This document shows, in pieces, positions 23,402 through 46,103 of a stretch of 64,000 nucleotides of DNA. This DNA comes from Bacteroidota bacterium (GTDB lineage Bacteria; Bacteroidota; Bacteroidia; Chitinophagales; Chitinophagaceae). The notes beneath the pieces are model-generated. The model saw only the letters and a program-made list of their open reading frames with translations, did not search any database and was not told where the DNA came from. Numbering within the stretch: position 1 is the first letter of the stretch; the number at the start of each line of letters is the position of its first letter. The stretch covers positions 1,020 through 65,019 of the forward strand of contig JBJOIU010000003.1 in the NCBI GenBank assembly GCA_046046935.1. The letters run 5' to 3'. A program made the position numbers and the translations under genes.

Positions 23402-24480
23402 TATTCAGGCTTCGCTAATTCATCTTTTTCAGAAATCCCACTTAAGACCTCTACCTTATCATAGTCTTTTAAGCCAACAGCTATTTTTCTTCTTTCTTTA
23501 TTAGCCAATAAAACATAAGTATCATCAATTAAATAAGACCTTGGTATAGTCAACACACTATTTTTAATTTGAATGACAATATTTGCTTCGGCACTTAAAT
23601 TAGGATAGATATTATCAGGTTTTTTTACAAAAACTGCATCTGCTTTAAAAGTCCTTGTTCTCTCATTCATAATAGGATATAACTTTTCTAATACAGCTTC
23701 GTATGTTTCTCCTTTATGACTATCCATGCTTACTAATACTTTCTGCCCCTTTACAATACTATTAATGTCAAATTCATCAATTTGGAGCTCTATATAAAAA
23801 TTATTAGCATCCCCTACAATCGCAATAGCTGATTGCGTATTAGCTAATTCGCCTAATTGTTTGTTAATTGAATATACTTTTCCATCAACTTGACTTTTAA
23901 TAATATAGTCATTCATATTTGCTGCACTTATTGCAGCTGTTCTATTGGTTTGACTATTTTGAAAATTGATCTGCTTTTCTAAATCGTTTAATTTTAATTT
24001 TGAAGCCTTATATATAGTGCTTGCGTTTTTATAGTTTAATAATCTTTGATCTAATTCGTTTTTTGTGCCAATTCCTTGTTCCCAAAGTTTTTCTTGTCTT
24101 GCTAGCAATGAGGCATCGTTTTCCATTTTAGACTTAGCTAATTCTAATTCTGTCTTGGCTTGTTCTATTTTTTCTCCATTAGTTTGGGAACTGTTGAATT
24201 GAGCATTCTGTTTCGCATTTTCATAAGTCAAACTTTGAGCAGTATTGGATAACCTAATAATAGCCTGTCCTTTTCTAATAAGATCGCCCTCTTTGATTAA
24301 AATGGCTTCAATAATTCCTGGCACTTTCGCGTACACCTCATATTGTCCCTTACTTTTAATAGTGCCAGATGCATAAACTGACTGAGTAATTCCTTCTCTT
24401 TTAGGGTATTGTTTCTCCAACTTTTCTCCACAACCCATTAGGATACAGATCAAAAAGCTGCCTGTCAAAAACTTATACAT
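23401..24480 (-). CDS. Efflux periplasmic adaptor (HlyD/MFP family) lipoprotein
   Basis: Lipobox (LMGC), lipoyl-like and coiled-coil hairpin regions. First gene of the three-gene efflux operon. Confidence 0.8.
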   Translation of the reverse strand: MYKFLTGSFLICILMGCGEKLEKQYPKREGITQSVYASGTIKSKGQYEVYAKVPGIIEAILIKEGDLIRKGQAIIRLSNTAQSLTYENAKQNAQFNSSQTNGEKIEQAKTELELAKSKMENDASLLARQEKLWEQGIGTKNELDQRLLNYKNASTIYKASKLKLNDLEKQINFQNSQTNRTAAISAANMNDYIIKSQVDGKVYSINKQLGELANTQSAIAIVGDANNFYIELQIDEFDINSIVKGQKVLVSMDSHKGETYEAVLEKLYPIMNERTRTFKADAVFVKKPDNIYPNLSAEANIVIQIKNSVLTIPRSYLIDDTYVLLANKERRKIAVGLKDYDKVEVLSGISEKDELAKPE

Positions 24481-24552
24481 AAAACTATATTTGAAAATGA
24501 TAAATAAAGCTACACATATTTTGTAATTTTCTTGTGCCTAAATGAATGATAT

Positions 24553-26697
24553 ATGAAAGTAGTAAAGCTGATTTTAATCAAGTTTATTTTGATAATGCCT
24601 ATTTTTTTGTTCGCACAAGAGGATTGGTTGATAAAGCCAATAAGTAAAAGAGCGGAAATCAAAAAAACCAATCAATATATTATATTGGATAATGGATTAA
24701 GCAGAAGAACCTTTTTTATTGGCCCAAATCTAGCATGTATAGACTATACAAATCTTACTACTAACCAACAGTTATTAAGAAGTATAGAGCCAGAGGCTAG
24801 AATAACTATTGATGGACTAGTGTATAATATTGGTGGCTTGATCGGAATGACAGAAAAAGCTTATTTAATCAAAGGAGCTGAACAGAAATTAATTTCAGAT
24901 CCATCGGCATTTCAATTTAAAAATTACCATATTGACAGTATTGCTAATTTTATTCAATGGAAATCCACTACATGGCTTTCCAATAAAGAACAACCAAAGG
25001 GAAAGTCTATTCGATTCGATTTTGTCTCCTCAAAGCCTTCTTTAAAAAATATTATTGTTTCTGTTTATTATAATTTATATGATGGCATTCCTTTAATTAC
25101 TAAATGGATTGAGATAAATAACAATAGCGCAACAACTATAAAAATTAATAGAGTAGTAAACGAAGTATTAGGTTTGGTAGAAGAAGAAAGTGCAGTGGTG
25201 GGTAAGCCCGAGGTAATGAAAAAACAACATGGAATTTATGTAGAAACAAATTATGCATTCAATAATGCAATGCGTTATGATATAAGTGACCAAACTACTC
25301 ATTGGAAAACAGACAGCTCTTATACTTCACAAGTGAACTATAATTTTGAAACACCTTGTTTATTAGAAATATATCCCGAAAAGGCACCTGGCATTGATTT
25401 ACAGACTAATGATCATTTCAAATCTGTTAGAACAAACGAACTCTTGATGGATAGTTATGATAGACAAAGACGTGGTTTAATGTTGCGTAAAATGTATAGA
25501 ACCATCGCGCCATGGACAACACAGAATCCTATTTTTATGCACTTGGTTAGCAAGAACGATGAAGAAGTAAAAGCGGCTATAGATCAATGTGTGCAAACAG
25601 GATACGAAGCGGTTATTTTAAGTTTTGGAAGTCATTTAAATATGGAAGATAGTAGTCAAAAAAATATTGATAAATGGAAGAAACTAGCACAGTATGCACA
25701 TCAAAAAAATATTTTATTAGGAGGTTATTCTTTATTTAGTAGCAGAAGAATTAGTGATGAAGATGATGTTATTGATATAAGAACAGGCAAACCTGGTGGT
25801 GCATTTTTTGGAAACGCTCCATGTTTTGGTAGCAAATGGGGATTGGCCTATAGAGATAAAATAAAATATTTTTTTAAAGAGACAGGTTTTGATATTTGGG
25901 AGAATGACGGACCTTATCCAGGTGATGTATGTGCAAGTAAAGTGCATCCAGGCCATAAAGATTATGATGATTCTCAATGGAGACAGATGGATATTCAAAA
26001 AGAACTATATAGATGGCTAAATGAAAAAGGCGTATATATTAATGCACCAGATTGGTATTTTTTAGATGGCACACATAAGATTGCAGTTGGTTATAGAGAA
26101 GTAAATTTCTCTTTGTCTAGATCCCAACAAAAAATAATCAATCGGCAGAATATTCACGATGGCACTATCGAAAAAACACCTTCCATGGGATGGGGTTTTG
26201 TCCCATTGACTAAATATCAAGGCGGTGGGGAAGATGCCGTTTTGGAGCCATTGGAGCAACATTTAGATGATTATGAGCAATTAATGATGCAATATTATGG
26301 TGCTGGGGTACAAGCATGTTATAGAGGTCCAAGATTATATGATACTGATAAGACAAAGGCTAAAGTGCAATCTGTGATTAGTTGGTATAAAAAATACAGA
26401 TCCATTTTGAATGCCGATATCATTCAATTAAGAAGAGCCGATGGACGTGATTGGGATGGCTGGTTACACGTTGACCCAGCACTTCCTCAAAAAGGGTTGA
26501 TGATGTTATTTAATCCAACTAATGAGACAATTACAAGAACAATTCAATTGCCATTGTATTATACTGGTTTAGACAAAACTGCAAAAATTGGAATTAAAGG
26601 CAATGCGCTTAAGTTCTATAGTTTGAATAGAGCTTATGAAACTTCCTTTAGTTTTACTTTAGCACCAGGCGCTTATGAATGGTTTACAGTTGAATAA
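24553..26697 (+). CDS. Secreted hypothetical protein (possible glycoside-hydrolase-like TIM barrel)
   Basis: Signal peptide and a long intact ORF. The central region (WENDGPYPGD...) loosely resembles GH catalytic barrels, but I could not assign a family. Confidence 0.35.
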   Translation: MKVVKLILIKFILIMPIFLFAQEDWLIKPISKRAEIKKTNQYIILDNGLSRRTFFIGPNLACIDYTNLTTNQQLLRSIEPEARITIDGLVYNIGGLIGMTEKAYLIKGAEQKLISDPSAFQFKNYHIDSIANFIQWKSTTWLSNKEQPKGKSIRFDFVSSKPSLKNIIVSVYYNLYDGIPLITKWIEINNNSATTIKINRVVNEVLGLVEEESAVVGKPEVMKKQHGIYVETNYAFNNAMRYDISDQTTHWKTDSSYTSQVNYNFETPCLLEIYPEKAPGIDLQTNDHFKSVRTNELLMDSYDRQRRGLMLRKMYRTIAPWTTQNPIFMHLVSKNDEEVKAAIDQCVQTGYEAVILSFGSHLNMEDSSQKNIDKWKKLAQYAHQKNILLGGYSLFSSRRISDEDDVIDIRTGKPGGAFFGNAPCFGSKWGLAYRDKIKYFFKETGFDIWENDGPYPGDVCASKVHPGHKDYDDSQWRQMDIQKELYRWLNEKGVYINAPDWYFLDGTHKIAVGYREVNFSLSRSQQKIINRQNIHDGTIEKTPSMGWGFVPLTKYQGGGEDAVLEPLEQHLDDYEQLMMQYYGAGVQACYRGPRLYDTDKTKAKVQSVISWYKKYRSILNADIIQLRRADGRDWDGWLHVDPALPQKGLMMLFNPTNETITRTIQLPLYYTGLDKTAKIGIKGNALKFYSLNRAYETSFSFTLAPGAYEWFTVE

Positions 26698-26698
26698 T

Positions 26699-28855
26699 TT
26701 AATTCAGAAATATTTCATCAATGAATATCCAAGCTGGTGTACCTTTTCCAGGATGCCAATTAGGTAATTTCTTTAAATTGGTTGCAGTAAACTTATAGTA
26801 TTTATAAGCCGTTGGTTTGGCGATGGCACAACTAAATCCTTGAGTTTCATTTAAGGTTTTAGGAGTTGCATTCGTAACTGCAGGATAATTATTTTTGGAT
26901 ATTATTGTATAATTTTTTCCATCCATACTTCCCATAACATCTATAGAAACAATTGGAAATATATAAGAACCCAAATTTACTAAGGCATTAAAATATATTT
27001 CTTTAATTGCGGTGGCCTTGTTGAAACCAATTATTAATTCCATATTAGCATCCTTATATCCTAGCCATTTTGCATTACCAAAATTCTTATCTCCTAATTC
27101 ATAATCAAATAAGGTCTTTGCCCCATTCGCTCTGTATTTTGCATCTGGTAATTGAACTAATAAAACGGAATCAGGATGAATGGTTGACTTGTAAAAATTT
27201 CTTTGCACAATATCACTGCTTATCCAGCCTGGTTTAAAAGCCTTAGTCTTTACCACGGTATTATTAAATAAGCGAATTGGCTTTTTATAGACTGGACTCG
27301 TAAGACTATCTGGATCTGTTCCATCTAATGTGTATCTTACGATGGTTCCTTTAACCACATGTTTAATTGGTATATCTAAATGAGCAGGAATGATAGAAGA
27401 GTCTTGTTCTATACTAGGGTTGATAATTTTAATAATTTCGTTTTCTAAATTATCTCCAATAGTAACAAGCAGTCCTTGCTTATTATTTTGAATTTGCTTT
27501 ATCTGATCTTTTTTGATGGTATTGTTCCAAATCTTTAATTCTTGTATAGTTGTTCCTTTAACTAAATTATTGATGGCACTCAGATTGCCCTCAATCCCTG
27601 CAATAGACAATACCTTAAGCTTTGGTAATTTTTTTATTAATTTTAAAGCATCAATTGTAAGTCCGGTATAATTTAAGTTCAATTTTTCTATTGCTTTAAA
27701 TTCAGCAATTACAGCCAAATCATCTTCTTTCAATGGCATGCCTTGCATATTTAAATACACAACTTGATCTTTAATTTTTTCGATATTTTTTAATTGCGCA
27801 CTGCTGTAGAAGCTTCCCTGATAAAAATTGACTTCAATTTGAGTAGAGCCAGGATATAAATAATGAACATTACAATAATTGGTATTGTATTCGCTTAGAT
27901 CGGGTCCAGTTGTTTGTTTACTTTTTTCTTTTACTGGTTGGTAGCTACTAGCTAAAATGTATAAACTATCAGCCTTGTTTAATTCCAGCATTTTTTTATT
28001 GAAATCTCCTCCTGCGCTTATCCAGTCATTTATTATTTTTAATTCTGCAGGCGATAACTGTGGTTTGCCATCTGGAGGCATATGTTTTTCTTCTGCTAAA
28101 GGCAGGTGAATTCTTTCTATGATACTTGCTTCACCTGATAATGCAAGAACAGATCCATGTTTTCCTCCTTTTGTTATATGGTCTTTGGTGTCTAATTGTA
28201 AATTGCCTTTTATCTTTTTTGGCCCATGACAGCTAACGCATTTATCTAATAAAATTGGCTCCACTGCTTTTTCATAAATACTCGCTGTGCTATCAAGTGT
28301 TTTCTTCTGAACAGTATCTTCTGTGATTATTTTATTCTCTGGAATACTCAATGCATCTATGCCATGTGTTAATTGCGCCCCCTTATGGGTAAATACAATG
28401 ATCAAGAGCAACATAAAAACACCCACTTCAACTCTTAATATTCTATTAGATTGAAATTTTGTATAATAATTATTAATGAAAACTAATGCCCAACTACATA
28501 GTGCTATGGCAATGCCACCCCATTGGTGTTGGGTAATTATATCACCTTCATAAGTATTGGAAGTAGAAAGTAAAAGACCAGTAATCGCTACTAATACCGA
28601 CAATAGCGCATTGATTAATAAAACTGGCTGCTCTATTGTACTTGCAATTTTGCCAGCTGGCACAAACACTAAATACAATCCAATAAGTATACCAAAGACT
28701 AATGGAAAATGCAATAGTAGCGGATGAAATTTACCCAACCATACCATGCCTATGCTGGTATCAATGGCATCTTTAAAAATTGCAATAAAAACTAGAAAAG
28801 GATTTAATATCCATAGTGCACTACCTATATAAGCAAATACCTTATTTGGTTTCAT
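26699..28855 (-). CDS. Polytopic membrane protein with periplasmic cytochrome-c (PSCyt1-like), LRR, chitobiase/Hex C-terminal-like and discoidin-like domains
   Basis: About 5 N-terminal TM helices, heme motif CVSCHGPKK with downstream HMPPDG, LRR-like LNLNYTGL/LKVLSIAG repeats, and VRYTLDGTDP, a motif typical of the chitobiase C-terminal domain. Confidence 0.6.
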   Translation of the reverse strand: MKPNKVFAYIGSALWILNPFLVFIAIFKDAIDTSIGMVWLGKFHPLLLHFPLVFGILIGLYLVFVPAGKIASTIEQPVLLINALLSVLVAITGLLLSTSNTYEGDIITQHQWGGIAIALCSWALVFINNYYTKFQSNRILRVEVGVFMLLLIIVFTHKGAQLTHGIDALSIPENKIITEDTVQKKTLDSTASIYEKAVEPILLDKCVSCHGPKKIKGNLQLDTKDHITKGGKHGSVLALSGEASIIERIHLPLAEEKHMPPDGKPQLSPAELKIINDWISAGGDFNKKMLELNKADSLYILASSYQPVKEKSKQTTGPDLSEYNTNYCNVHYLYPGSTQIEVNFYQGSFYSSAQLKNIEKIKDQVVYLNMQGMPLKEDDLAVIAEFKAIEKLNLNYTGLTIDALKLIKKLPKLKVLSIAGIEGNLSAINNLVKGTTIQELKIWNNTIKKDQIKQIQNNKQGLLVTIGDNLENEIIKIINPSIEQDSSIIPAHLDIPIKHVVKGTIVRYTLDGTDPDSLTSPVYKKPIRLFNNTVVKTKAFKPGWISSDIVQRNFYKSTIHPDSVLLVQLPDAKYRANGAKTLFDYELGDKNFGNAKWLGYKDANMELIIGFNKATAIKEIYFNALVNLGSYIFPIVSIDVMGSMDGKNYTIISKNNYPAVTNATPKTLNETQGFSCAIAKPTAYKYYKFTATNLKKLPNWHPGKGTPAWIFIDEIFLN

Positions 28856-28857
28856 TC

Positions 28858-30303
28858 TTAGCTAATTAATTCATTGATAACATTTCCAGCAACATCTGTT
28901 AATCTGTATCTTCTACCTAAATGTTTGAAAGTAAAATCTTCGTGATTAACACCCATTAAATGCATTACGGTTGCATGAAAATCGTGCACATGTACAGGAA
29001 GGGTATTAATATTATAACCAAACTCATCTGTTTCTCCATGTACTCCTGGTTTTACTCCACCACCTGCCATCCAAATGGTAAAACATCTAGGATGATGATC
29101 TCTTCCATAATTGTCTTTTGCTAATGCACCTTGACAATAATTGGTTCTTCCAAATTCACCACCCCAGATAACTAAGGTCTCATCTAATAATCCTCTTTGT
29201 TTCAAATCTTTTACTAATGCTGCAGATGCTTGATCTACATCTTTGCATTGTCCTTCTAATTGAGAAGGTAAATTATCGTGTGCATCCCAGCCTTGATGAT
29301 ATAGTTGTACAAAGCGAACGCCATTTTCGGATAATTTTCTTGCTAATAAACAATTGGCTGCATAGGTTCCTGGCACCAAACAATCCGGTCCATACATTTT
29401 TACAATCGATTCTGGTTCGTTTTGTAAAGAAGTGATTTCTGGCACAGCCATTTGCATTCTATAAGACAATTCGTACTGTTGAATCTTTGCCACAATCTCT
29501 GGATCGCCAATTTCTTTATAAGAAGCTTCGTTTAATGAAGCAATCTCGTCTAGCATGGCTCTCTTATCATCTCTCTGAATAAAAGAAGGGTCAGTTAAAT
29601 ATTTAACTGGTTCTTCTCCACTGGTAAATTGAACACCCTGATGTATTGAATCTAAAAATCCGTTATTCCATAATTTTGAATAGACGCCCTGTCCATTTCC
29701 CTTGCCCTTACTTAATAAAACACAGAAAGCAGGCAGGTTTTTATTTTCACTACCTAGACCATAACTAATCCAAGATCCCATACTTGGTCTATTACCTACT
29801 TGAGCACCTGTTTGAAAGAAGGTTAAAGCAGGATCATGATTAATAGCTTCTGTGTACATACTTTTGACAATACATAAATCATCTGCTATGCTAGCTATAT
29901 GAGGAATGGTTTCACTAAACCATGCACCATGTTGACCATGTTGAGAGAAATTAAATTTTGTTCCAGCTAGTGGAAACTTCGCTTGATTAGCCGTCATGCC
30001 CGTTAAACGTTGCCCCATTCTAATGCTTGCGGGCAGATCTTCTCCATGCATACTTTGCAACTTAGGTTTATAATCAAATAAATCTAATTGTGATGGAGCT
30101 CCGTTTTGAAACAAATAAATTACTCTTTTTGCTTTAGGAGCGAAATGTGGTAATACGCTTGCAAATAATTCGTCTTCTGTTTTTGCTTGAAATAAACCTG
30201 GTGCTACAAGAGACCCTAATGCTAATCCACCAATACCCAAACTAAGTTTAGATAAGAATTTTCTTCTATTTTGGTTTAAGCCATGTTCTAAAAATTCATT
30301 CAT
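28858..30303 (-). CDS. TAT-exported DUF1501 protein (alkaline-phosphatase/sulfatase superfamily)
   Basis: Leader NRRKFLSKLSLGIGGLALG, then DUF1501-type NGAPSQLDLFDYKP near the N-terminus and WGGEFGRT / GRDHH near the C-terminus. Confidence 0.8.
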   Translation of the reverse strand: MNEFLEHGLNQNRRKFLSKLSLGIGGLALGSLVAPGLFQAKTEDELFASVLPHFAPKAKRVIYLFQNGAPSQLDLFDYKPKLQSMHGEDLPASIRMGQRLTGMTANQAKFPLAGTKFNFSQHGQHGAWFSETIPHIASIADDLCIVKSMYTEAINHDPALTFFQTGAQVGNRPSMGSWISYGLGSENKNLPAFCVLLSKGKGNGQGVYSKLWNNGFLDSIHQGVQFTSGEEPVKYLTDPSFIQRDDKRAMLDEIASLNEASYKEIGDPEIVAKIQQYELSYRMQMAVPEITSLQNEPESIVKMYGPDCLVPGTYAANCLLARKLSENGVRFVQLYHQGWDAHDNLPSQLEGQCKDVDQASAALVKDLKQRGLLDETLVIWGGEFGRTNYCQGALAKDNYGRDHHPRCFTIWMAGGGVKPGVHGETDEFGYNINTLPVHVHDFHATVMHLMGVNHEDFTFKHLGRRYRLTDVAGNVINELIS

Positions 30304-30312
30304 ACTAATGAT

Positions 30313-32655
30313 TTAAGATTTGGTGATCGCTTCTTCAAGATTATACATAATTAATATAGTCTTCATTAAAGCAGCAGCCTCAGCTTGGTTATATTTTTTA
30401 GTTGGTTGTGCAAACTCTCCAATAGCTAATGTTTCTACTGCCAATGCAGGCTTTTGATTATAGACTTCCATTTGGCTTTGGCAATATTTACTCAATTTGT
30501 TTTTTTCAAATCTTGTAGCAGGTCTAATTAAAATGGTTTCGAATGCTTTTTGAATTTTCTCATCCATACTTCCTTTGCCAATACTTAATTTCTGTGCCAT
30601 TACTCTAGATGCTTCTAGTATGGTAGGATCGTTCAACATATTTAAAGCTTGTAATGGAGTATTGGTACTACTTCTTTTTGCTTCACACTGGTCTCGATTA
30701 CTTGCATCAAATATCATCATGCTTGGAGGTGGCGCAGTCAATTTAATAAAAGTATACATGCCTCTTCTGTACAAGTCATTATTATGATCTTGTTTATAGC
30801 TTGCTAATACACCCCTACCGCTAGTAGTACTTTCCCAAACACCTTTTGGTTGATAAGGCTTTACACTTGGTCCTCCGATTGTATAATTCAACAAACCACT
30901 AGATGCTAAAATAAAATCTCTAATTGTTTCTGCTTTGTATCTAATTCTTGGGGATCTTGAATAATACATGTTATCCGGATCTTTCTCTAATTGTTTATCA
31001 TGTATATCTGCAGATTGTTTGTAAGTACTACTATTAACAATCTTTTCTATCAAATATTTAATGTTCCAATTATGTTCCATAAAATCTACTGCCAACCAGT
31101 CTAATAATTCCGGGTGTGTTGGTAATTCACCTTGTAATCCATAATCACCTGATGTTTTTACGATTCCTTTTCCAAAAATTTCTTGCCAAATAAAATTCAC
31201 AAATACTCTAGCGGTCAATGGATTTTTTTTATTCACTGTCCATCCTGCTAATCCTAATCTATTTCTTTGATACTTGGTTGTATCAAAAGGCATGATAGAT
31301 TCTAATGCAGTTGGCTGAACTTGAACAGTTGAAGGAGCATCATAGCTGCCTCTGTTTAATATATAAGTTGGACGTGGTTTATTTGAATCTCCCATTACCG
31401 CTACTTCTAGAGTAGTCGTATCTTTTGAATTAATATATTTTAATAAACTATTTCTATCTGTTGCTGTGATAAATAGTTTAGGTGTTTTTGCAGGAGTTGA
31501 AATACTTACATCACCTTCGTATCCTTTTTCTTTGCTAATATTAAAAAAGCCATACAATTGATAATAGTCTTTAGCTGAGAATGGATCGTATTTGTGATCA
31601 TGGCATTGCGCACATTCTATAGTTACTCCTAAAACCGCTTTGCCATAAGTTTTAGTTTTATCAATATTATAAGATACTCTGTATTCTTCTTCAATTACAC
31701 CACCTTCTTCTGTGTATTTGTGATTTCTAAAAAAGGCAGTTGCTAAAATACTTTCTTTATTAGCATTGGGTAAAAGATCTCCAGCAATTTGTTGTGTTAA
31801 GAATTGATCATAAGACATATTCTTATTGAAAGCATTAATCACCCAATCTCTCCAAGGCCATTGTGTTCTAATATTATCATCTTGAAATCCGTAAGAGTCT
31901 GCATATCTAGCTAAGTCTAACCAAAGTACGCCCATTTTTTCTCCGTAAGCTGGTTTAGATAATAGCTGCTTAACCATTAATGTATACCAATCAGCTTGAT
32001 TGTTATTGCTCCATTGAAGAAATTCTTCATGTGTTGGAGGTAAACCTGTAATATCTATAAATACTCTTTTAATTAGTGAAGGTTTAGTAGCTGCATCGTT
32101 TGGACTAAATCCTTTTTTCTCCATGCTTGCCAAAATAAAATGATCTATTTCGTTACTTGGCCACTTGGAATTTTCAACCTCAGGTAATTTTGCTTTTACA
32201 GGTGTAACAAATGCCCAATGCTTTTCATATTTAGCACCCTGCTTGATCCATTTTTTGAATAATGCAATTTGTTCTGGACTTAATGGAGTAAGATGACTCT
32301 CTGGTAAAGGCATCATCGTTTTTGGATCGGTAGATTCTATTCTTACAATTAATTCACTTAATTCTGGATGACCAGGCACAATAGCAAATTTTCCTTTTGA
32401 TTTTTTTAATGGAGCAAATGCGAAAGCTGCTTGATCTAATCTTAATTCAGCTTTTACTTTTTTAACATCAGGTCCATGGCAAGTAAAACATTTATCAGAT
32501 AAAATGGGGCGTATATCTCTATTATAAGATACTATTTCGTCCTCTGAATTTTTTTGATTGAATGCAAAATATCTAATTGCACCAATCACAATATAGGCAA
32601 TGACTAATATAGCAATGACGATAGTTAATTTCTTATTTATCCAATTTTTTTTCAT
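30313..32655 (-). CDS. Membrane-anchored PSCyt1 / DUF1549 (PSCyt2) / DUF1553 (PSD1) protein
   Basis: N-terminal TM anchor, CFTCHGPD heme motif, second CAQCHDHKYDP motif typical of DUF1549, and a long DUF1553-like C-terminus. Confidence 0.8.
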   Translation of the reverse strand: MKKNWINKKLTIVIAILVIAYIVIGAIRYFAFNQKNSEDEIVSYNRDIRPILSDKCFTCHGPDVKKVKAELRLDQAAFAFAPLKKSKGKFAIVPGHPELSELIVRIESTDPKTMMPLPESHLTPLSPEQIALFKKWIKQGAKYEKHWAFVTPVKAKLPEVENSKWPSNEIDHFILASMEKKGFSPNDAATKPSLIKRVFIDITGLPPTHEEFLQWSNNNQADWYTLMVKQLLSKPAYGEKMGVLWLDLARYADSYGFQDDNIRTQWPWRDWVINAFNKNMSYDQFLTQQIAGDLLPNANKESILATAFFRNHKYTEEGGVIEEEYRVSYNIDKTKTYGKAVLGVTIECAQCHDHKYDPFSAKDYYQLYGFFNISKEKGYEGDVSISTPAKTPKLFITATDRNSLLKYINSKDTTTLEVAVMGDSNKPRPTYILNRGSYDAPSTVQVQPTALESIMPFDTTKYQRNRLGLAGWTVNKKNPLTARVFVNFIWQEIFGKGIVKTSGDYGLQGELPTHPELLDWLAVDFMEHNWNIKYLIEKIVNSSTYKQSADIHDKQLEKDPDNMYYSRSPRIRYKAETIRDFILASSGLLNYTIGGPSVKPYQPKGVWESTTSGRGVLASYKQDHNNDLYRRGMYTFIKLTAPPPSMMIFDASNRDQCEAKRSSTNTPLQALNMLNDPTILEASRVMAQKLSIGKGSMDEKIQKAFETILIRPATRFEKNKLSKYCQSQMEVYNQKPALAVETLAIGEFAQPTKKYNQAEAAALMKTILIMYNLEEAITKS

Positions 32656-32664
32656 GAACCAAGA

Positions 32665-33690
32665 TTAAACTCTAGAAAATTTATAAGGATATACTTTACC
32701 AGAAGCCCATTGTGCAACATAGACGCTGCCTTCATTGTCTACACAAACATCATGCGGGTGCACTAATATTTTTTCTACCTGAGACATGGGTTGTAAAATC
32801 CCATTTACATATGTTGGTTCTGAGCCACCTAAATTAGACACGACTTTATTGTCCTTATCCAATATAGTAATAAAACCAGACTTCTCGTTGTCTAAACTTG
32901 GAGATCTTAAAACAGCTGCATATAAATAATCTCCTTTAATAACTGGTCTGCATACACATGCGCCAGGCAAATGTATTGTCTCGATTAATTTACCTTCTAA
33001 AGAAAATCTTTTAAATGCGTTTCTTGTTCTATCAGTAATTAATAGAGTAGTAGTACCATTTCTTTTGTCAACACATATGCCATGTGCATTATCAAAATGT
33101 GCTTCACCTTCTCCTCTTCCTCCAAATACATTTTTTAAATTTCCTTTTTCATCATAGTGCATAATATGCTGCGCACCATATCCATCTGCTATATAAAACT
33201 CTCCATTTTCCAACACTGTTGTTTCTGTTGGAACAAATGCTTCAGCTTTTGCGTAAGCAGGAACATCCTTTGGAGCATTGATGGTTAATAAAATTTTTCC
33301 ATCCATCGTGGTTTTAAATACTTGGTGTGTATTAGTATCGGTAATAAATAAAAAATCTTCTTTACCATTATGCTGAATAGTTAACCCGTGTGCGCCAGGA
33401 AACTGATGTCCCCAACTTTCGATCAACTTGCCAGAAGTATTATATACAATTACATTATTTTTTGTTTCATTGGTTAACAAAACAATTCTACCCTTACTGT
33501 CCTGCACCATTTCGTGACAATCATTTACAGGTGTTTGACTTGGATTTAAGTTACCCCATTCGGTGTTAAGGGTATAGGTCATTTTATTGTGACCATACAC
33601 TGGATTATTTTTCACTGGATTGTTTTTTTTGGTAAGGAGTATACCCACAGAAGCAATAGATACATTTTTCACAAATGTTCTTCTTTTCAT
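32665..33690 (-). CDS. TAT-exported six-bladed beta-propeller (NHL-repeat / PAL-like) protein
   Basis: Leader MKRRTFVKNVSIASVGILL. Repeated blade motifs with H/D-rich strands (HGLTI, ADGYG, HGICVD, PHDVCVD). Confidence 0.6.
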   Translation of the reverse strand: MKRRTFVKNVSIASVGILLTKKNNPVKNNPVYGHNKMTYTLNTEWGNLNPSQTPVNDCHEMVQDSKGRIVLLTNETKNNVIVYNTSGKLIESWGHQFPGAHGLTIQHNGKEDFLFITDTNTHQVFKTTMDGKILLTINAPKDVPAYAKAEAFVPTETTVLENGEFYIADGYGAQHIMHYDEKGNLKNVFGGRGEGEAHFDNAHGICVDKRNGTTTLLITDRTRNAFKRFSLEGKLIETIHLPGACVCRPVIKGDYLYAAVLRSPSLDNEKSGFITILDKDNKVVSNLGGSEPTYVNGILQPMSQVEKILVHPHDVCVDNEGSVYVAQWASGKVYPYKFSRV

Positions 33691-33748
33691 AAGACAATAT
33701 TTAAGTAAGCAATCGTTAATAGATACCTTCTTAAAGATAACTTATTGT

Positions 33749-35005
33749 CTATTTATTTGAAGCAGTAAATTCAATTTTTTGAGTAGCATCAATCTTCAAC
33801 CAAACAAAAGCTCCAAGCAATACCATGATTCCTATAAAAAGTACAGGAAGGTAGTAGCCAAAATTAGAGGCAAGGTATCCAAACAAAATAGTGCTAAAAT
33901 AAGCACCGGTTAAACCTGCGCTATTCATTGATCCTGAGACAGTTCCACTCTTATCCCCCCCTAAATCCATCGCAACCGCCCAAGCTACAGGAGCAGTCAC
34001 ATCCATAAATGCCATTCCAATAGCTAATGCTATGATTGCCAACATATTATCTTCTACTAAAGATGCCCCAATGATACAAATTCCAGCAACAAATAGGCCT
34101 ACCATCGGTACAATTCTTCTGCCCCATTTTTTACCCCATTTTAAGCAGGCTTTATCGCTTAGCCATCCACCTGTAAAGCAACCCAATGCCGCCAATAAAT
34201 AGGGAACTGATGAAGCCCACATTAAAGCATCGGCTGAAATATTTCTCCCCTTTTGTAAATATGTATGAAACCAACTTTGAAAAAAATAAGCACCAATTGC
34301 ATAACATACATACATGCCCAATAGATACCACAAATTTTTATTCTTGAAGCCTGACCAGAAAGAAGTTTTTTTAGAGTCTGTGTTGTCTCCAATATCTCTA
34401 TGCGTATGAATAAAATTCAATTCCTCTTTACTAATAGATTTACTTTGAGCAGGTTCTTCTTTATGCCAAAAAATCCAAAATAAAGTCCAAAGAATTCCAA
34501 CAAATCCTAAAACATAAAAACTTGTATGCCAATTATATTTTTGTTGAATTGGTAAAACAATAAAAGGAGTTAGTGCAGCACCCAATCTCGAAGCGCCCCA
34601 AATGACTGCTTGTGCGCGTCCTCTTTCAAATGCTGGAAACCATTTTGCTAAAACTATAGAAGTGTTTGGATATGCGCCCGCTTCGCCCATCCCAAATAAA
34701 AATCGTACTAATAGTAGCATTAAAAAACCATTGGCAAAACCTGTTAGTATTGTGAACAAAGACCACCATAGTACCACGCGAATTAAAATTTTCTTTCCGC
34801 CGAATTTATCTCCTAGCCAACCCGTAGGAATTTCAAATGCAGCGTATGCAATAGTAAACATGCCTAGTATCCATCCCCATTGATTAATACTAATATCTAA
34901 GTCGTCCATGATATTGGTACTTGCAGAAGATAAAGCAATTCTATCTAAGAAAGTAATCATAGATAGAATTGCTAATACTAATAAAACCTGGTATCTTTTT
35001 TTCAC
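33749..35005 (-). CDS. MFS transporter (anion:cation symporter-like)
   Basis: 12-TM layout with the MFS signature region GWLGDKFGGKK. GTG start in the track. Confidence 0.85.
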   Translation of the reverse strand: MKKRYQVLLVLAILSMITFLDRIALSSASTNIMDDLDISINQWGWILGMFTIAYAAFEIPTGWLGDKFGGKKILIRVVLWWSLFTILTGFANGFLMLLLVRFLFGMGEAGAYPNTSIVLAKWFPAFERGRAQAVIWGASRLGAALTPFIVLPIQQKYNWHTSFYVLGFVGILWTLFWIFWHKEEPAQSKSISKEELNFIHTHRDIGDNTDSKKTSFWSGFKNKNLWYLLGMYVCYAIGAYFFQSWFHTYLQKGRNISADALMWASSVPYLLAALGCFTGGWLSDKACLKWGKKWGRRIVPMVGLFVAGICIIGASLVEDNMLAIIALAIGMAFMDVTAPVAWAVAMDLGGDKSGTVSGSMNSAGLTGAYFSTILFGYLASNFGYYLPVLFIGIMVLLGAFVWLKIDATQKIEFTASNK

Positions 35006-35019
35006 TAAACTAGTTTCTA

Positions 35020-36348
35020 CTAATATTTGGTAATGCCGGGAATCGCAATAGGGTAGCGGCCTTCAGCATCTGGCGTTACAGGAGGTGTTGCATCCCAAGC
35101 ATATACTTTTGGATGAATATCTAATCCTGAATTAATCGCTTTGTCCCAATACATCATTTGACCACTATAAGTAGCCATTCTACCTAGTATAGAAGTCATG
35201 GTACTTTTTGCGCCATTTTCTGCATCAGCAAATTTATATTCTCCTTTTGCAATGGCCGCAAACAATTCATCGTGTTCTGTTTGGTATGGATTGTTTTCTT
35301 TTTTGGTATCGTATTGATAAATTAATTTACCACTATGGTCTTTAATATTTGCAGCGCCACAAGCAATCCTTCCTTTTGTGCCAATTAATAATTCATCCAC
35401 TCTACTCATGGTGCCAGGCATATGTCTACACTGACTATTTAAAATAGATCCATCTGCGTATTCGAATTCAACATAATGGTGATCAAAAATTTCTCCGTGC
35501 TCTTTACTTGTTCTTACTTGTCTTCCACCAAAACCTTGTGCTTTTACAGGATAGCCACCTTTGAACCAGTTGATCACGTCTAAATTGTGAATATGTTGCT
35601 CTGTGATATGATCACCACAAAGCCAATTAAAATAATACCAATTACGCATTTGGTATTCCATTTCTGTTTGACCAGCTTTTCTTGGTCTTGTCCATACACC
35701 ATCATTATCCCACCATGCTTGCATGCTAGTAATATCTCCAATCAAATCTTTTCTTTTGAACAATTCTCTATAAGAATTTTGATAATGTCTTTGTAAACCA
35801 ACCACTACGTTTAATTTTTTTTGCTTTGCAATAGCTGCCGTTGCCAATACTTTTTGAACTCCTGCAGGATCTGTTGCCACAGGCTTTTCCATAAATACAT
35901 GCTTGCCTTGTGCAATGGCTTCTTCAAAATGAATTGGTCTAAAACCTGGAGGTGTTGCAAGAATTACAACATCTGCTAAGGCAATGGCTTTTTTATAACC
36001 ATCAAATCCTGTGAATTTTCTTTCTTCTGGAACGTCCAATCTTTTTGCCAGTTCACCAATACTATTATTAATTTCTTCTGTTAATTCTTTATGACAATTA
36101 TCTACATTGTCTTTAAAGGCATCACATAATGCAACAATTTTTACATTTTGTTTACTAGATAATGCTTGCATTGCAGCACCTGTGCCTCTTCCGCCACATC
36201 CTACTACTGCTACTTTGATGGTATCTTCTGCTCCAGAAAAATAATTGGCTTTGGATAAAAATGGAGTTGCCATTAATCCGCCGGCAACAAGGCCACTATT
36301 AATCACAAAGTCTCTTCTTGATGCATTGTTTGGTTCTTGGTTTTTCAT
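35020..36348 (-). CDS. TAT-exported Gfo/Idh/MocA family oxidoreductase
   Basis: Leader SRRDFVINSGLVAGGLMA, Rossmann motif VAVVGCGGRGTG and an EKP motif (FMEKPV). Confidence 0.85.
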   Translation of the reverse strand: MKNQEPNNASRRDFVINSGLVAGGLMATPFLSKANYFSGAEDTIKVAVVGCGGRGTGAAMQALSSKQNVKIVALCDAFKDNVDNCHKELTEEINNSIGELAKRLDVPEERKFTGFDGYKKAIALADVVILATPPGFRPIHFEEAIAQGKHVFMEKPVATDPAGVQKVLATAAIAKQKKLNVVVGLQRHYQNSYRELFKRKDLIGDITSMQAWWDNDGVWTRPRKAGQTEMEYQMRNWYYFNWLCGDHITEQHIHNLDVINWFKGGYPVKAQGFGGRQVRTSKEHGEIFDHHYVEFEYADGSILNSQCRHMPGTMSRVDELLIGTKGRIACGAANIKDHSGKLIYQYDTKKENNPYQTEHDELFAAIAKGEYKFADAENGAKSTMTSILGRMATYSGQMMYWDKAINSGLDIHPKVYAWDATPPVTPDAEGRYPIAIPGITKY

Positions 36349-36358
36349 AGAAAGGTTT

Positions 36359-37267
36359 TTATAAATGAATATAGTTGTTGAAAAATTGATTTACTTCTTC
36401 TTCGCTTGGTTGTTTGATTGGCCTAACTAATCTAAATCCCACTTCTTTAGCTTCGGTTAACCACCATTTACTTTTTGGAATTTGTGGATCCCTTTTATTC
36501 CAGACTGGATCTGAATGAAATCTTTCATTATTATTTAAATGTAAAGCATCTTCTAAAAAACTTCCGCCTCTTAATACCTTTGGGTATTTTGCTGCATTAG
36601 CCGGTACTACTGGATTTTTAGATTGAATATTTTCAAAACTATTTGGATAATAATGATCTAAGGTCCACTCTAACATATTGCCTAGTATATCATACAAGCC
36701 CCAGGGATTAGGTAATTTCTGTCCTACCTTATGATACACCCCTTTGCTATTTTTTTTATACCAGGCATATTTATCTAATAACGAAGAATTGTTGCCAAAA
36801 AAATAAGTACTTGTCGTATTTGCTTTTGATGCATATTCCCATTCAGCTTCTGTAGGTAGTCTATAAAAAACTTTTGTCTTTTTATATAACCACTTACAAT
36901 ACATAATTGCAGCTAATTGAGACATACTATTCGCAGGATAACCTCCTTCTTTCCCCATGCCCCAAGTAAGATCTACATATTGCGCGCTGGGCCTTGTGAT
37001 GGCATCTGTTTTTGAATTCTGACTTGTTCCTTCGTCTTTTAAAAAAATATCAAACTCATCTCTAGTTACTTCAAATGCACCCATCCAAAAAGCACTTAGC
37101 TCAATTTTTTTATTGCTATTGCCAATATTAAATGTTCCAGCTGGAATTGGAACCATTTTAAAATACAAGCTAGAGCCAGGAATTAATTGTTTGTATGCAA
37201 TAAAATCTTGTCCGAAAATATTATTAAGGAAAAAGCACAAAAGTAGCGTAATGAAATTTCTTTTCAA
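36359..37267 (-). CDS. Secreted formylglycine-generating-enzyme (FGE/SUMF1) fold protein
   Basis: FGE-domain motifs YRLPTEAEWEYA, GNMLEWTLD and LRGGSF. TTG start with a signal peptide. Confidence 0.8.
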   Translation of the reverse strand: MKRNFITLLLCFFLNNIFGQDFIAYKQLIPGSSLYFKMVPIPAGTFNIGNSNKKIELSAFWMGAFEVTRDEFDIFLKDEGTSQNSKTDAITRPSAQYVDLTWGMGKEGGYPANSMSQLAAIMYCKWLYKKTKVFYRLPTEAEWEYASKANTTSTYFFGNNSSLLDKYAWYKKNSKGVYHKVGQKLPNPWGLYDILGNMLEWTLDHYYPNSFENIQSKNPVVPANAAKYPKVLRGGSFLEDALHLNNNERFHSDPVWNKRDPQIPKSKWWLTEAKEVGFRLVRPIKQPSEEEVNQFFNNYIHL

Positions 37268-37302
37268 GTCAATCGTTTTGATTCTTTAAGTTAACTAAAA
37301 AT

Positions 37303-38355
37303 CTAATTCAAAAAAGCATCAAAGCCCTTTGATTTATAATAATGAATGGTTTTATCTTTTTGAATAGCAATCAATATATGGGCTTTGTTTATTTCCACTA
37401 ATTGCAAAGCTTCTTTAACACTCAAAACACTGCATGCGGTAGATAGCCAATCTGCTGTAACACCATCTTTGGCAATTACAGTCACATTTTTGGGAATTTC
37501 AATCCCATAGCCGCTTTTGGGATTAATAATATGAGAGTATCTATGCCCCTCATGTATATAAAACTGATAAACATCTCCACTGGTTGCAATTGCTTCATTA
37601 TGAAGCCTTAGTGTGCTTTTTATGGTTTTGTTTTTGTCTCTGATTTCATTGATTCCAATGGACCAAGATGCATTTACGGGAGCAAGACATACAATTTTGC
37701 CTCCTGCATCAATCATGGCATATTCGAGACCCTTTGATCGAAGATGATTCAATGCTTTTTGTGCAACAAAGCCCTTACCTAGACTTCCTAGATCCAATCG
37801 CATAGCTCTATTGGGCAAGTAAATTCGATGAAAAACACTATCGATTATAATATGATCAAAAGCAATTTGATTTTGTGCAATTTGAATCTGCTTTTTTGTT
37901 GGAAAGTTTTTTGATTTTCTTGCATTTCTCCATAAAACACTCAAAGGGCCAATAGCTATATTATAAGCTCCTTTTGTTTGTTGATAAGCTTTTTGAGCGA
38001 CTAGTAAAATCTCCTCCAGTATTGGGCTGATGGGCATTGAGCGAATACCCGCATTTTGATTAATAATGCTAATCTCACTTGTACTGTCATAATCACTTAA
38101 AATATGATTCAATGAATCTATTAATTGAAGTGCTTCTTTTGCTATTTGTGTGGATTGTACACTATCTATATGTCCATCCTTGGTTCCAATGGTAATAGTT
38201 AATGGCGATCCCATCTTATCTGCAAAGTAACTATACTTCTTATATTGCCCATTTGCAGGAGCTAAATGGATCAAGCCAATAAGAATCAGTAAAAGAGATT
38301 TATTCAAGTTGTTCTTGTAATTAGTTATACTTAAATTTAAGGAATTAAATAACAA
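37303..38355 (-). CDS. apbE: FAD:protein FMN transferase (ApbE family)
   Basis: ApbE-like motifs MGSPLTITI, DLGSLGKGF and ATSGDVYQF. The track start is TTG at 38355, only 3 bp from the divergent ATG at 38359. An internal TTG at 38307 (MNKSLLLILIGL...) is plausible. Confidence 0.8.
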   Translation of the reverse strand: MLFNSLNLSITNYKNNLNKSLLLILIGLIHLAPANGQYKKYSYFADKMGSPLTITIGTKDGHIDSVQSTQIAKEALQLIDSLNHILSDYDSTSEISIINQNAGIRSMPISPILEEILLVAQKAYQQTKGAYNIAIGPLSVLWRNARKSKNFPTKKQIQIAQNQIAFDHIIIDSVFHRIYLPNRAMRLDLGSLGKGFVAQKALNHLRSKGLEYAMIDAGGKIVCLAPVNASWSIGINEIRDKNKTIKSTLRLHNEAIATSGDVYQFYIHEGHRYSHIINPKSGYGIEIPKNVTVIAKDGVTADWLSTACSVLSVKEALQLVEINKAHILIAIQKDKTIHYYKSKGFDAFLN

Positions 38356-38358
38356 ATC

Positions 38359-39270
38359 ATGGAACGACGTAATTTCTTAAAACAAAATTTACTAGCTAGT
38401 GGAACAATCCTAAGCACTGGCGCATTTGCCAATGCGTCAATGTCTTTTAATGCCGAATCAACTTTTAAATTGAATTATGGATTTCATGATGGCATGTTTA
38501 GGTCACATGCGGGAGAAGATTTTATTGATCAAATAAAATTCGCTCATAGTATGGGTTTTCGATCTATTGAAGACAATGGAATGATGGACAGAACGCCAGC
38601 TATGCAACAAAAAATTGGCGATACATTGGCTTCTTTAGGAATGACCATGGGTGTTTTTGTAATTAGTTTTGATCACTGGCCTTTAAGTGTTTCAATGACA
38701 AGTGGCAGTAAAGAATGGAGAAAGAAATTTGTTGATTATTGTGCCGAAGCAGTCATTGTTGCAAAAAGATGCAATGCCAAGCATATGACGGTAGTTCCGG
38801 GAAATTATGATCGCAGCAAATCTATGGATATGCAATTGGCCAATGTATTAGAAGCTTTAAGACCTGGAGTAGAAATTTTAGAAAAAAATAATTTAGTAAT
38901 GGTATTAGAACCATTAAGCGATACACCTGAATTATTTTTAAGACATTCTGATCAAACTTATGCTATTTGTAAAGCAATGAATAGTAGTGCATGTAAAATT
39001 TTATTTGACATGTATCATATGCAAAGAAACGAGGGTAATATCATTGCCAATATGGATAAGTGTTGGGACGAAATTGGCTATTTCCAAATTGGCGATAACC
39101 CTGGACGTAAAGAACCAGGTACAGGTGAAATGAATTACAATAATATTTTTAAACATATTCATCAAAAAGGATATAGAGGCGTAATGGGAATGGAGCACGG
39201 AAATGCAGGCCCTGGCAAAGAAGGCGAACTGGCTTTGATCAAGGCTTATAGAGTAGCAGACAATTTTTAA
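38359..39270 (+). CDS. TAT-exported hydroxypyruvate isomerase-like TIM-barrel protein
   Basis: Leader MERRNFLKQNLLASG. Hyi-family motifs VLEPL and LFDMYHMQRNEGN. Confidence 0.75.
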   Translation: MERRNFLKQNLLASGTILSTGAFANASMSFNAESTFKLNYGFHDGMFRSHAGEDFIDQIKFAHSMGFRSIEDNGMMDRTPAMQQKIGDTLASLGMTMGVFVISFDHWPLSVSMTSGSKEWRKKFVDYCAEAVIVAKRCNAKHMTVVPGNYDRSKSMDMQLANVLEALRPGVEILEKNNLVMVLEPLSDTPELFLRHSDQTYAICKAMNSSACKILFDMYHMQRNEGNIIANMDKCWDEIGYFQIGDNPGRKEPGTGEMNYNNIFKHIHQKGYRGVMGMEHGNAGPGKEGELALIKAYRVADNF

Positions 39271-39293
39271 TGTAAAATTTAATCTTTCAAAAT

Positions 39294-46060: not shown

Positions 46061-46103
46061 ATGATTGTTTTATAGTTACTAAATATACTAAATTACAAGA
46101 GGT

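Follow-up and report, generated by a model that had tools for sequence, protein, structure and literature searches.

A conserved four-gene DUF1501/PSCyt cassette of Bacteroidota with candidate redox and lytic subunits

Main

DUF1501 and its PSCyt/PSD1 partners are among the largest protein families without known function. They dominate the genomes of Planctomycetes and Verrucomicrobia, bacteria important in aquatic carbon cycling, where massive paralogy hampers genetics; their domains are reportedly those treated by Studholme in 2004. Across Planctomycetes, Verrucomicrobia and Lentisphaerae (PVC bacteria), DUF1501 and a PSCyt1/PSCyt2/PSD1 protein make up a conserved module of unknown function (Kamneva et al. 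2012, PMC3542564). Its four-gene form includes, besides a PPC-like secreted protein, a second PSCyt1 protein fused to a WD40 beta-propeller, with a Big_2 insert in the PSCyt protein, and DUF1501 was also noted in 'a few Bacteroidetes' (PMC3542564). The module was discussed again for freshwater Verrucomicrobia, where PSCyt genes neighbour sulfatases and are enriched in those of the oxic layer (He et al. 2017, PMC5615132). Here we analyse a Bacteroidota cassette built around this module. It lies in a stretch of 64,000 nt, which as a whole we call the window, from a Bacteroidota bacterium (Chitinophagaceae; assembly GCA_046046935.1, contig JBJOIU010000003.1, positions 1,020-65,019). Its four genes encode, from upstream to downstream, a 341-aa NHL propeller protein, a 780-aa PSCyt protein, a 481-aa DUF1501 protein and a 718-aa protein that joins a transmembrane (TM) domain to a cytochrome c domain, here termed TM-cytochrome.

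We find that the four genes are conserved together, in fixed order, across Bacteroidota. Our preferred reading, held tentatively and at somewhat less than an even chance, is that they encode one periplasmic enzyme complex anchored in the inner membrane, a Bacteroidota elaboration of the DUF1501/PSCyt module that combines redox and lytic activities. The original prediction, made from the letters of the window, had put the locus forward as an undescribed system. That description was too broad, as the core module was already described in PVC bacteria in 2012 (PMC3542564) and 2017 (PMC5615132). Its further statement that no function has been established stands, with none published in the searchable literature or given in the source annotations. 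Public database names of the cassette proteins are generic, and a literature search on DUF1501, DUF1549/DUF1553, PSCyt1 and DUF2231 returned genome-survey mentions and no biochemistry (hits to PSD1 were swamped by yeast Psd1).

Results

Four genes form a conserved unit across Bacteroidota

Scanning one genome per species with the 718-aa gene yielded 80 loci, all in metagenome-assembled genomes (MAGs); adjacency was counted over those loci with sufficient upstream DNA. DUF1501 adjoins the 718-aa gene in 73 of 73 loci, a PSCyt1/PSCyt2/PSD1 gene is adjacent in 67 of 67, and the NHL gene in 59 of 60. The order NHL>PSCyt>DUF1501>TM-cytochrome and the shared strand are constant across loci, and well-called neighbouring genes lie -4 to 44 bp apart inside cassettes of both MAGs and cultured strains. 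Within the window the gaps measure 9, 9 and 2 bp in the list of open reading frames (ORFs), which reproduces exactly the four ORF coordinates, strand and gaps of the original prediction. The flanks are wholly different between Chitinophagaceae, Prolixibacteraceae and Cytophagales. Such near-perfect co-occurrence in fixed order over three Bacteroidota orders, beyond what chance would give, upholds the proposal that two extra partners are dedicated to the DUF1501/PSCyt pair.

Carriers among the 80 loci belong to Chitinophagaceae/Sediminibacterium, Prolixibacteraceae and Cyclobacteriaceae/Flammeovirgaceae, and most are freshwater MAGs. By source taxonomy all are Bacteroidota save a single 7.9-kb contig (L048, CALPWK020000093.1). 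It carries a Bacteroidota-type TM-cytochrome gene and is binned as 'Comamonas sp.', probably through a binning error. The 718-aa architecture has hundreds of full-length relatives in sequence searches. Identity to the window copies across loci is 76-98% for DUF1501 and falls to 42-50% for TM-cytochrome in the more distant loci. Between Bacteroidota classes, DUF1501 is 84-90% identical as against 44-50% for the TM-cytochrome encoded beside it; this uneven conservation reflects either extreme constraint on DUF1501 or recent transfer of part of the cassette.

Cultured strains hold a sister clade (DUF1501 69-75% identical) that keeps PSCyt>DUF1501>TM-cytochrome and in which NHL has moved or been lost in some members. 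Marinoscillum furvescens DSM 4134 has the order hybrid two-component regulator>NHL>PSCyt>DUF1501>TM-cytochrome>GH29 fucosidase, and Chitinophaga sp. XS-30 has PSCyt>DUF1501>NHL>TM-cytochrome. Rhabdobacter roseus carries PSCyt>DUF1501>TM-cytochrome, and Flavilitoribacter nigricans Gfo/Idh/MocA>PSCyt>DUF1501>TM-cytochrome. The classical DUF1501/PSCyt pair appears in a Gemmataceae locus.

A promoter-like box sets the cassette apart

The cassette occupies the last four places in a co-directional minus-strand run of eight genes (38355-26699), a context that the original prediction missed. Of 62 loci, 24 (the window included) have the motif TATCTT[TA][AG] at -57 to -32 relative to the NHL start, where 0.38 would be expected; 15 loci have a hairpin and T-run terminator directly upstream of it. 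The window's copy, TATCTTTA, resembles the Bacteroidota -7 promoter consensus TAnnTTTG. Exact TAnnTTTG is missing from the intergenic gaps and under-represented overall, and the variant was recognised only through cross-locus comparison. Because this conserved box, often with a terminator before it, lies upstream of NHL, the four genes look like a transcription unit of their own within the longer run. We therefore rejected the eight-gene run as the unit: only four of its genes are conserved, and NHL has the promoter-like box ahead of it, in some loci together with a terminator. The four-gene operon first proposed thus survives as a conserved unit with its own promoter-like box, while the co-directional run around it holds eight genes rather than four.

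An 8-bp inverted repeat, AGACAATA ... TATTGTCT, flanks the entire 58-bp intergenic region between the MFS and NHL genes (33691-33748), box included, and is retained in the closest relatives L007, L008, L010 and L014. Scans for sigma-70 promoters and terminators gave counts at or below shuffle expectation and are uninformative for Bacteroidota. An Rfam scan of 24000-41000 at E<=1 returned no match and hence no riboswitch clue.

Two subunits carry invariant haem-binding motifs

Pfam profile searches recovered PF07394, PF07583, PF07587 and PF07635 from the cassette. The last three lie in the 780-aa protein as PSCyt1 (PF07635, E 9e-14), PSCyt2/DUF1549 (PF07583, 4e-78) and PSD1/DUF1553 (PF07587, 7e-94), all above cutoff. 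Its sequence begins with a hydrophobic anchor and contains CFTCH at residue 56 and CAQCH at residue 348, both invariant in 70 orthologs. Invariant positions include C56/C59/H60/M115 and C348/C351/H352, the latter inside an invariant ECAQCHDHKYD stretch (residues 347-357) within PSCyt2/DUF1549. A search of the PDB by sequence gave no solved-structure relative. These features predict a membrane-tethered periplasmic dihaem protein, and every element first listed for it (TM anchor, both CxxCH motifs, the three domains) was found.

The 718-aa protein carries a third site, CVSCH at residue 206, in a PSCyt1 match (E 2.5e-8) whose residues C206, C209, H210 and M259 are invariant. All three CxxCH sites are invariant across cassette orthologs, and covalent haem is predicted from these motifs. 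Upstream of the cytochrome, an AlphaFold2 (AF2) model shows five TM helices, in agreement with the earlier estimate of about five. The original prediction missed both the DUF2231-type character of this TM domain and its cluster of invariant histidines (H44, H49, H110, H157 and H164). DUF2231 matches sister-clade copies at 37 bits (E 4e-9) and is a precomputed match on many orthologs. From the positive-inside rule and the need for a periplasmic cytochrome c, we infer that the five histidines lie at the periplasmic face.

The remainder of the 718-aa protein is a candidate glycan-binding arm. Pfam assigns Fn3_assoc/CHB_HEX_C_1 to residues 501-553; in the AF2 model, residues 320-466 form repeats in which strand and helix alternate, and residues 600-718 a beta-sandwich. 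Foldseek matches the model to CBM32 domains (probability 1.0) and to the C-terminal domains of Bacteroides GH20 'chitobiases' (BT0459, E 8.6e-11). Leucine-rich repeats (LRRs) and carbohydrate-binding-type domains had been claimed here. The latter are borne out by Pfam for CHB_HEX_C and by Foldseek for CBM32, and the LRR repeats by the model; neither the LRR nor the discoidin match reaches its Pfam cutoff (LRR_4 19.5 versus 27 bits in the window copy, with one homolog passing; F5_F8_type_C 15.8 versus 28.2 bits).

The NHL propeller resembles peptidyl-alpha-hydroxyglycine lyase

Pfam matches of the 341-aa protein are NHL and DUF5128, and a twin-arginine motif, RRTFV, stands at residue 3; the twin-arginine leader and six-bladed propeller first read here are thus both present. 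At the equivalent position of each blade there is one invariant residue (H59, H101, E156, H203, R248 and H313, the last followed by an invariant D314), and Y171, R221 and R228 are invariant as well. Compared with the PDB, the family profile finds NHL propellers at E values down to 2.6e-15 and PAL, the peptidyl-alpha-hydroxyglycine lyase domain of PAM, at 1.6e-10. PAL is the sole enzyme among these relatives.

In the alignment with PAL (3fvz), H101 falls on the His of 'LPHGL' (chain index 94) and Y171 on the Tyr of 'SDGY' (chain index 163). A segment free of gaps matches residues 299-336 to PAL 281-318, so that H313-D314 coincides with the 'HD' of 'HDIVA' (H313 at index 295). At a constant offset of 491, the aligned PAL residues are presumably rat H585, Y654 and H786/D787. 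We take rat H585, H690 and H786 to be the three His ligands of zinc, a numbering with which the offset is consistent, Tyr654 and Arg706 to be the catalytic residues and D787 a calcium ligand. Chufan et al. (2009) reportedly identified the zinc ligands, catalytic Tyr and calcium ligand. On this alignment the NHL protein carries a putative PAL-like metal site, a signature that the original prediction missed. PAL itself is a six-bladed propeller with a single active-site zinc that cleaves a hydroxylated intermediate produced by a redox enzyme (PMC6529398), and its active-site Arg is essential (PMC10303134).

DUF1501 models as a remote relative of the sulfatases

The 481-aa protein matches PF07394 over the full length of the profile (E 9.3e-150) and has a twin-arginine motif, RRKFL, at residue 13, as expected from its first description as a twin-arginine-led DUF1501 protein with a sulfatase/alkaline-phosphatase-like core. 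Its family comprises 25,553 clusters at 50% identity (matches at E<=1e-3), and a PDB sequence search gave no solved-structure relative. Among 60 diverse members (<=57% identity), the invariant or near-invariant residues are G68, S71 (58/60), K79, P80, H156, W178, D340, H342, E383, G385, R386, R401, H403 and T445; D74, D77 and D402 are mostly conserved.

An AF2 model built from a deliberately diverse alignment (pLDDT 83, pTM 0.84) has S1 sulfatases and LtaS as its nearest solved folds, with Foldseek probability 1.0, TM-scores of 0.3-0.4 and about 11% identity. The matches include choline sulfatase, ARSA, carrageenan sulfatases and glycosaminoglycan sulfatases (E about 1e-6), so that the fold first proposed recurs by AF2 and Foldseek. 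By sequence, the family profile pairs 'GGEFGR' with the sulfatase metal motif 'GDHGR', and PDB sulfatases reach only E 0.01-0.1. A regular-expression search found no C/S-x-P-x-R formylglycine motif in DUF1501, and the Sulfatase profile PF00884 gives no match, PF07394 alone appearing at E<0.01. Given a sulfatase-type model, the GGEFGR alignment and a conserved polar set without a formylglycine motif, DUF1501 is on this modelling a remote member of the alkaline-phosphatase superfamily with a conserved metal/oxyanion-type residue set, and not an S1 sulfatase.

The complex might instead be a non-redox esterase, an account that we consider unlikely. DUF1501 would then act in the periplasm as a hydrolase of sulfatase- or phosphatase-like type. 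Its partners, the PSCyt/PSD1 and 718-aa proteins, would bind substrate and provide the membrane tether, and their haems would be structural or sensory without conducting metabolic electrons. Its conserved Lys, Arg, His and Asp are typical of oxyanion-ester hydrolases, the cassettes of Rhabdobacter and Marinoscillum lie in sulfatase-rich surroundings, and the partners carry domains of the carbohydrate-binding module (CBM) type (PMC3542564, PMC5615132). However, three CxxCH sites with matching Met or extended motifs, invariant over deep divergence, argue for functional haems. A tethering role does not readily account for a polytopic, His-rich membrane domain that is joined to a cytochrome c, and a PAL-like lyase implies prior oxidation.

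Near-invariant Ser71 in a sulfatase-like fold raises another possibility, which we judge very improbable: that the PSCyt/PSD1 haem protein is a dedicated maturase which, in the periplasm, oxidises an active-site Ser in the DUF1501 paired with it and so creates a formylglycine-like residue. This would explain the strict pairing of one PSCyt2/PSD1 gene with each DUF1501 gene (PMC3542564), and the window's eight-gene run also contains a gene resembling the formylglycine-generating enzyme (FGE). DUF1501, however, has no C/S-x-P-x-R recognition motif, and its Tat (twin-arginine translocation) export implies that it is folded, and probably cofactor-loaded, before export. Known Ser-type sulfatase maturation is cytoplasmic and depends on radical SAM enzymes, and CBM, LRR and PSD1 domains and a membrane cytochrome would be superfluous for a maturase. 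We also considered the FGE-like gene itself as the DUF1501 maturase and rejected it, since the CxPxR motif is lacking and the gene is missing from most loci.

Neighbouring genes vary between lineages

Feature coordinates in the window are listed in Table 1.

Table 1. Cassette genes, promoter-like box and neighbouring features, in coordinates of the 64,000-nt window
Feature	Position	Strand	Remarks
NHL subunit, 341 aa	32665..33690	(-)	Tat-signal KRRTFVK; six-bladed NHL beta-propeller; PAL-like putative metal site
PSCyt subunit, 780 aa	30313..32655	(-)	N-terminal signal anchor; PSCyt1 + PSCyt2/DUF1549 + PSD1/DUF1553
DUF1501 subunit, 481 aa	28858..30303	(-)	Tat-signal NRRKFLS; divergent alkaline-phosphatase/sulfatase fold (modelled)
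TM-cytochrome subunit, 718 aa	26699..28855	(-)	DUF2231-type TM domain, PSCyt1, LRR-like, CHB_HEX_C, CBM32
TATCTTTA box	33732..33739	(-)	~50 nt upstream of NHL start codon; candidate promoter/operator of the four-gene unit
Upstream same-strand context	33749..38355	(-)	ApbE, FGE-sulfatase-like, Gfo/Idh/MocA, MFS; outside the conserved core
ApbE flavin transferase	37303-38355	(-)	first gene of the eight-gene run
Sec-signal FGE-sulfatase-like protein	36359-37267	(-)	
Tat-signal Gfo/Idh/MocA dehydrogenase	35020-36348	(-)	
ACS-type MFS transporter	33749-35005	(-)	
714-aa secreted protein, convergent, downstream	24553..26697	(+)	without Pfam domain
Divergent Tat-signal xylose-isomerase-like TIM-barrel protein	38359-39270	(+)	
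Divergent-side GH29 alpha-L-fucosidase	39294-40757	(+)	

Only the Chitinophagaceae closest to the window (L003, L005-L010) have ApbE, FGE, Gfo and XylTIM together with the cassette; among the 80 loci, an MFS gene is found near it in 17 and a Gfo gene in 8. With no [ST]GA[ST] flavinylation motif in any cluster protein, we do not count ApbE as part of the system. The listed TTG start of ApbE lies 3 bp from the divergent gene and is probably too far upstream, its homologs measuring 303-334 aa against 350 aa here. The Sec-signal FGE-sulfatase-like and Tat-signal Gfo/Idh/MocA pair is conserved with ApbE in L003 and L005-L010 and may be a periplasmic sugar-oxidation set.

These dehydrogenases suggest an account of the haems as an electron sink. 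The cytochrome c relay would re-oxidise Tat-exported Gfo/Idh/MocA dehydrogenases with tightly bound NAD(P) and pass the electrons to the respiratory chain, leaving DUF1501 and NHL with accessory or substrate-conditioning roles. A Tat-signal Gfo/Idh/MocA gene indeed shares the run in the window and its closest relatives, stands directly upstream of PSCyt in Flavilitoribacter and, in several Sediminibacterium loci, is no more than 5 kb away. Four Gfo/Idh/MocA genes are present in the window in addition to 3-keto-disaccharide hydrolase genes. The acceptor of such periplasmic dehydrogenases is unknown, and the known 3-ketoglycoside dehydrogenases are cytochrome c-dependent (PMC8121099). We nevertheless doubt this account and rate it as unlikely: cassettes of Prolixibacteraceae and Cytophagales have no nearby Gfo gene, DUF1501 is the most conserved of the four proteins, unlike an accessory, and classical PVC pairs are not generally Gfo-linked (PMC3542564).

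Eighteen Sediminibacterium-type loci (among them L018, L028, L029, L031 and L035) have, directly upstream of NHL, a gene whose 810-aa product joins a lactonase/YncE-like beta-propeller to a PF04185 phosphoesterase of the PLC/AcpA family. A strong intrinsic terminator separates it from the cassette, on which ground we rejected it as a fifth member. The gene does invite a reading as phosphorus scavenging, in which the cassette would free phosphate from organophosphate esters in P-limited fresh water, with DUF1501 as the phosphoesterase and an ACS/OPA-like MFS importing the organic anion. In keeping with this, models of phosphoglycerate and glycerol-3-phosphate transporters give scores for the MFS neighbour (as does the galactonate model), most carriers come from fresh water, and phosphatases such as PhoD and PhoX are commonly Tat-exported. 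We regard it as quite unlikely all the same. Besides the intervening terminator, neither the window nor the other lineages have the phosphoesterase gene, nothing pointing to pst, pho or a Pho-box was found, and phosphate release needs neither haems nor a PAL-like lyase.

Several neighbours point to glycans. The convergent 714-aa gene is present in 36 of 80 loci (median gap 28 bp) and is co-conserved in Chitinophagia only. Its product gives faint GH36N and GH97 signals and no Pfam domain or, by sequence search, PDB relative; members with 84% identity bear the name 'alpha-galactosidase' at NCBI. The product is probably a glycosidase of a distant alpha-galactosidase-like kind, and its family (5032 matches at E<=1e-3) may be an unclassified glycoside hydrolase family. 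GH29 genes are found beside the Marinoscillum furvescens cassette, in the flanking DNA of L009 and L086 and, in the window, just past the divergent TIM-barrel gene. The Marinoscillum cassette further has an adjacent regulator of the hybrid two-component system (HTCS) type and an S1 sulfatase nearby. In Rhabdobacter the cassette sits amid three S1 sulfatases, two heparinase II/III-like genes, SASA and a BNR protein, and a SusD gene lies 8 kb from that of Chitinophaga sp. XS-30. No SusC/SusD pair occurs among the annotated genes around the window cassette. Together with the CBM32 and CHB_HEX_C domains, the GH29, alpha-galactosidase-like, S1 sulfatase, heparinase-like and HTCS neighbours in various lineages make the glycan link first proposed plausible.

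Other features of the loci are recorded here in their own right. In the Prolixibacteraceae MAG loci L001/L002 (16-22 kb), an alternative-complex-III-like set (Fer4/molybdopterin-like, NrfD, ActD and cytochrome c) lies on the other strand about 4 kb from the cassette, possibly by coincidence. Elsewhere in the window, genes at 3915-4874, 7849-11102 and 58791-61442 encode three further Gfo/Idh/MocA proteins, another xylose-isomerase-like TIM barrel and a protein in which two 3-keto-disaccharide hydrolase (DUF1080) domains stand in tandem. This second glycoside-oxidation gene set suggests heavy use of the 3-keto-glycoside route. A bacteriorhodopsin-like gene (6769-7491) stands beside a beta-carotene 15,15'-dioxygenase (Blh) gene (5786-6757), both on the minus strand, as a retinal-based light-energy module in a genome of freshwater Chitinophagaceae type. 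Secreted peptidase genes of families M20 (three), M24 and M14 are dense at 41859-57444, with Sortilin/BNR and CBM9/DUF5916 proteins among them, which suggests a peptide-scavenging region unrelated to the cassette; a gamma-glutamyltranspeptidase gene lies elsewhere in the window.

Discussion

The predicted localisation of the products, two with Tat signals, one signal-anchored and one with five TM helices, is consistent with the preferred reading of the cassette as a single redox and lytic complex. In the periplasm, the CBM32/LRR arm and PSD1 would catch an anionic substrate derived from a glycan, for example a sugar or oligosaccharide that bears sulfate or phosphate. DUF1501 would attack its oxyanion ester in a metal-dependent reaction, and the PAL-like propeller, also metal-dependent, would cleave a hydroxylated intermediate of hemiaminal or hemiacetal type. 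The redox step that such a lyase presupposes would be carried out or serviced by the two PSCyt haems. Finally, the 718-aa cytochrome c and its His-rich DUF2231 domain would exchange electrons between the complex and the respiratory chain.

A more specific chemistry can be written for this complex, which we offer as something of a long shot. PSCyt haems would oxidise or hydroxylate the carbon beside an O- or N-linked substituent on an anionic, glycan-derived substrate, the PAL-like zinc propeller would split the resulting hemiacetal or hemiaminal, and DUF1501 would remove or transfer the oxyanion, with electrons exchanged through the His-rich DUF2231-cytochrome c module. If true, this 'oxidise-then-cleave' machine would supply the first chemistry for a superfamily whose clusters at 50% identity number more than 25,000. 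It would have a eukaryotic parallel in the PHM/PAL/cytochrome b561 arrangement and represent both a kind of machine new to bacterial carbon or ester catabolism and a new type of membrane module.

Several observations weigh against a redox and lytic complex. For the lyase, the aligned stretches of PAL described above include neither the third zinc ligand nor the catalytic Arg, and the NHL gene is absent from the Rhabdobacter and Flavilitoribacter copies and so is not obligatory. For the hydrolase, DUF1501 offers two candidate nucleophiles, S71 and S130, and its TM-scores to sulfatases are just 0.3-0.4; enzymes of the alkaline-phosphatase superfamily are, moreover, normally non-redox, which leaves the need for haems unexplained. 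For the electron path, DUF2231 (PF09990) is marginal on the window TM domain (14.8 bits against a cutoff of 26.4, E 0.032), the literature search found no DUF2231 function, and the cytochrome c region is poorly predicted in the 718-aa model. All five conserved His are on the same membrane side and so are unlikely to form a transmembrane dihaem wire. As to the substrate, most of the 80 MAG loci have no sulfatase or classical polysaccharide utilization locus gene within 10 kb, and the Prolixibacteraceae cassette is surrounded by housekeeping genes. The literature search gave no experimental datum for any member of the DUF1501/PSCyt family.

The cassette is a compact version of the module found across three Bacteroidota orders, and its two extra subunits, a candidate PAL-like metal lyase and a membrane cytochrome with a glycan-binding arm, give mechanistic clues. 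Sister copies in the cultured Chitinophaga sp. XS-30, Marinoscillum furvescens DSM 4134, Rhabdobacter roseus and Flavilitoribacter nigricans make a 20-year-old question testable. Should the redox-plus-lytic reading be true, the breakdown of decorated glycans or esters would have a route tied to respiration rather than to glycoside hydrolases.

Comparison with known systems

DUF1501 shares with S1 sulfatases and LtaS a core fold (by modelling), the strand-loop of the second metal-binding motif, a periplasmic site and glycan-rich neighbourhoods. It differs from S1 sulfatases in its approximately 11% identity, its lack of C/S-x-P-x-R and PF00884, 'GGEFGR' in place of 'GDHG', Tat export and an obligatory haem-protein partner. 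The 718-aa protein has CHB_HEX_C and F5/8-type-C domains in the same order as Bacteroides GH20 beta-hexosaminidases (BT0459, PDB 6Q63; 3F2Z, 3GGL, 2KD7), whereas here the pair sits on a membrane cytochrome and not on a glycoside hydrolase catalytic domain.

The NHL protein and PAL are both six-bladed NHL propellers, and His residues at blade positions taken to bind zinc in PAL, as well as the Tyr taken to be catalytic, align with invariant residues. PAL also acts after a redox enzyme fed electrons across a membrane, which parallels a lyase placed among haem proteins. Unlike PAL, the NHL protein comes from bacteria and is exported by Tat. At the equivalent positions of other blades it has an invariant fourth His together with Glu and Arg, and it has c-type cytochromes rather than a copper monooxygenase as partners. 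The Sox system, with its SoxAX cytochrome c and SoxB hydrolase, is similar in that a periplasmic cytochrome oxidises and a separate metallohydrolase frees an oxyanion (sulfate). The analogy is one of logic only, as the cassette has neither Sox homology nor a carrier protein and all folds differ.

The cassette as a whole compares with the PVC module. In both, a Tat-signal DUF1501 protein is encoded beside a PSCyt1-PSCyt2-PSD1 protein, and the partners carry carbohydrate-binding-type domains. The cassette, by contrast, belongs to Bacteroidota and is apparently one orthologous unit, with one copy in the window, in place of dozens of paralogous pairs. Its second PSCyt1 protein is polytopic and DUF2231-type, with LRR, CHB_HEX_C and CBM32 regions instead of WD40, and its propeller is a separate Tat-exported NHL protein with a putative PAL-like site; Pfam finds no WD40, PPC or Big_2 domain in the cassette proteins. 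The Bacteroidota cassette is thus new in its DUF2231-cytochrome c-LRR-CHB_HEX_C-CBM32 subunit, its separate PAL-like propeller and its strict conservation.

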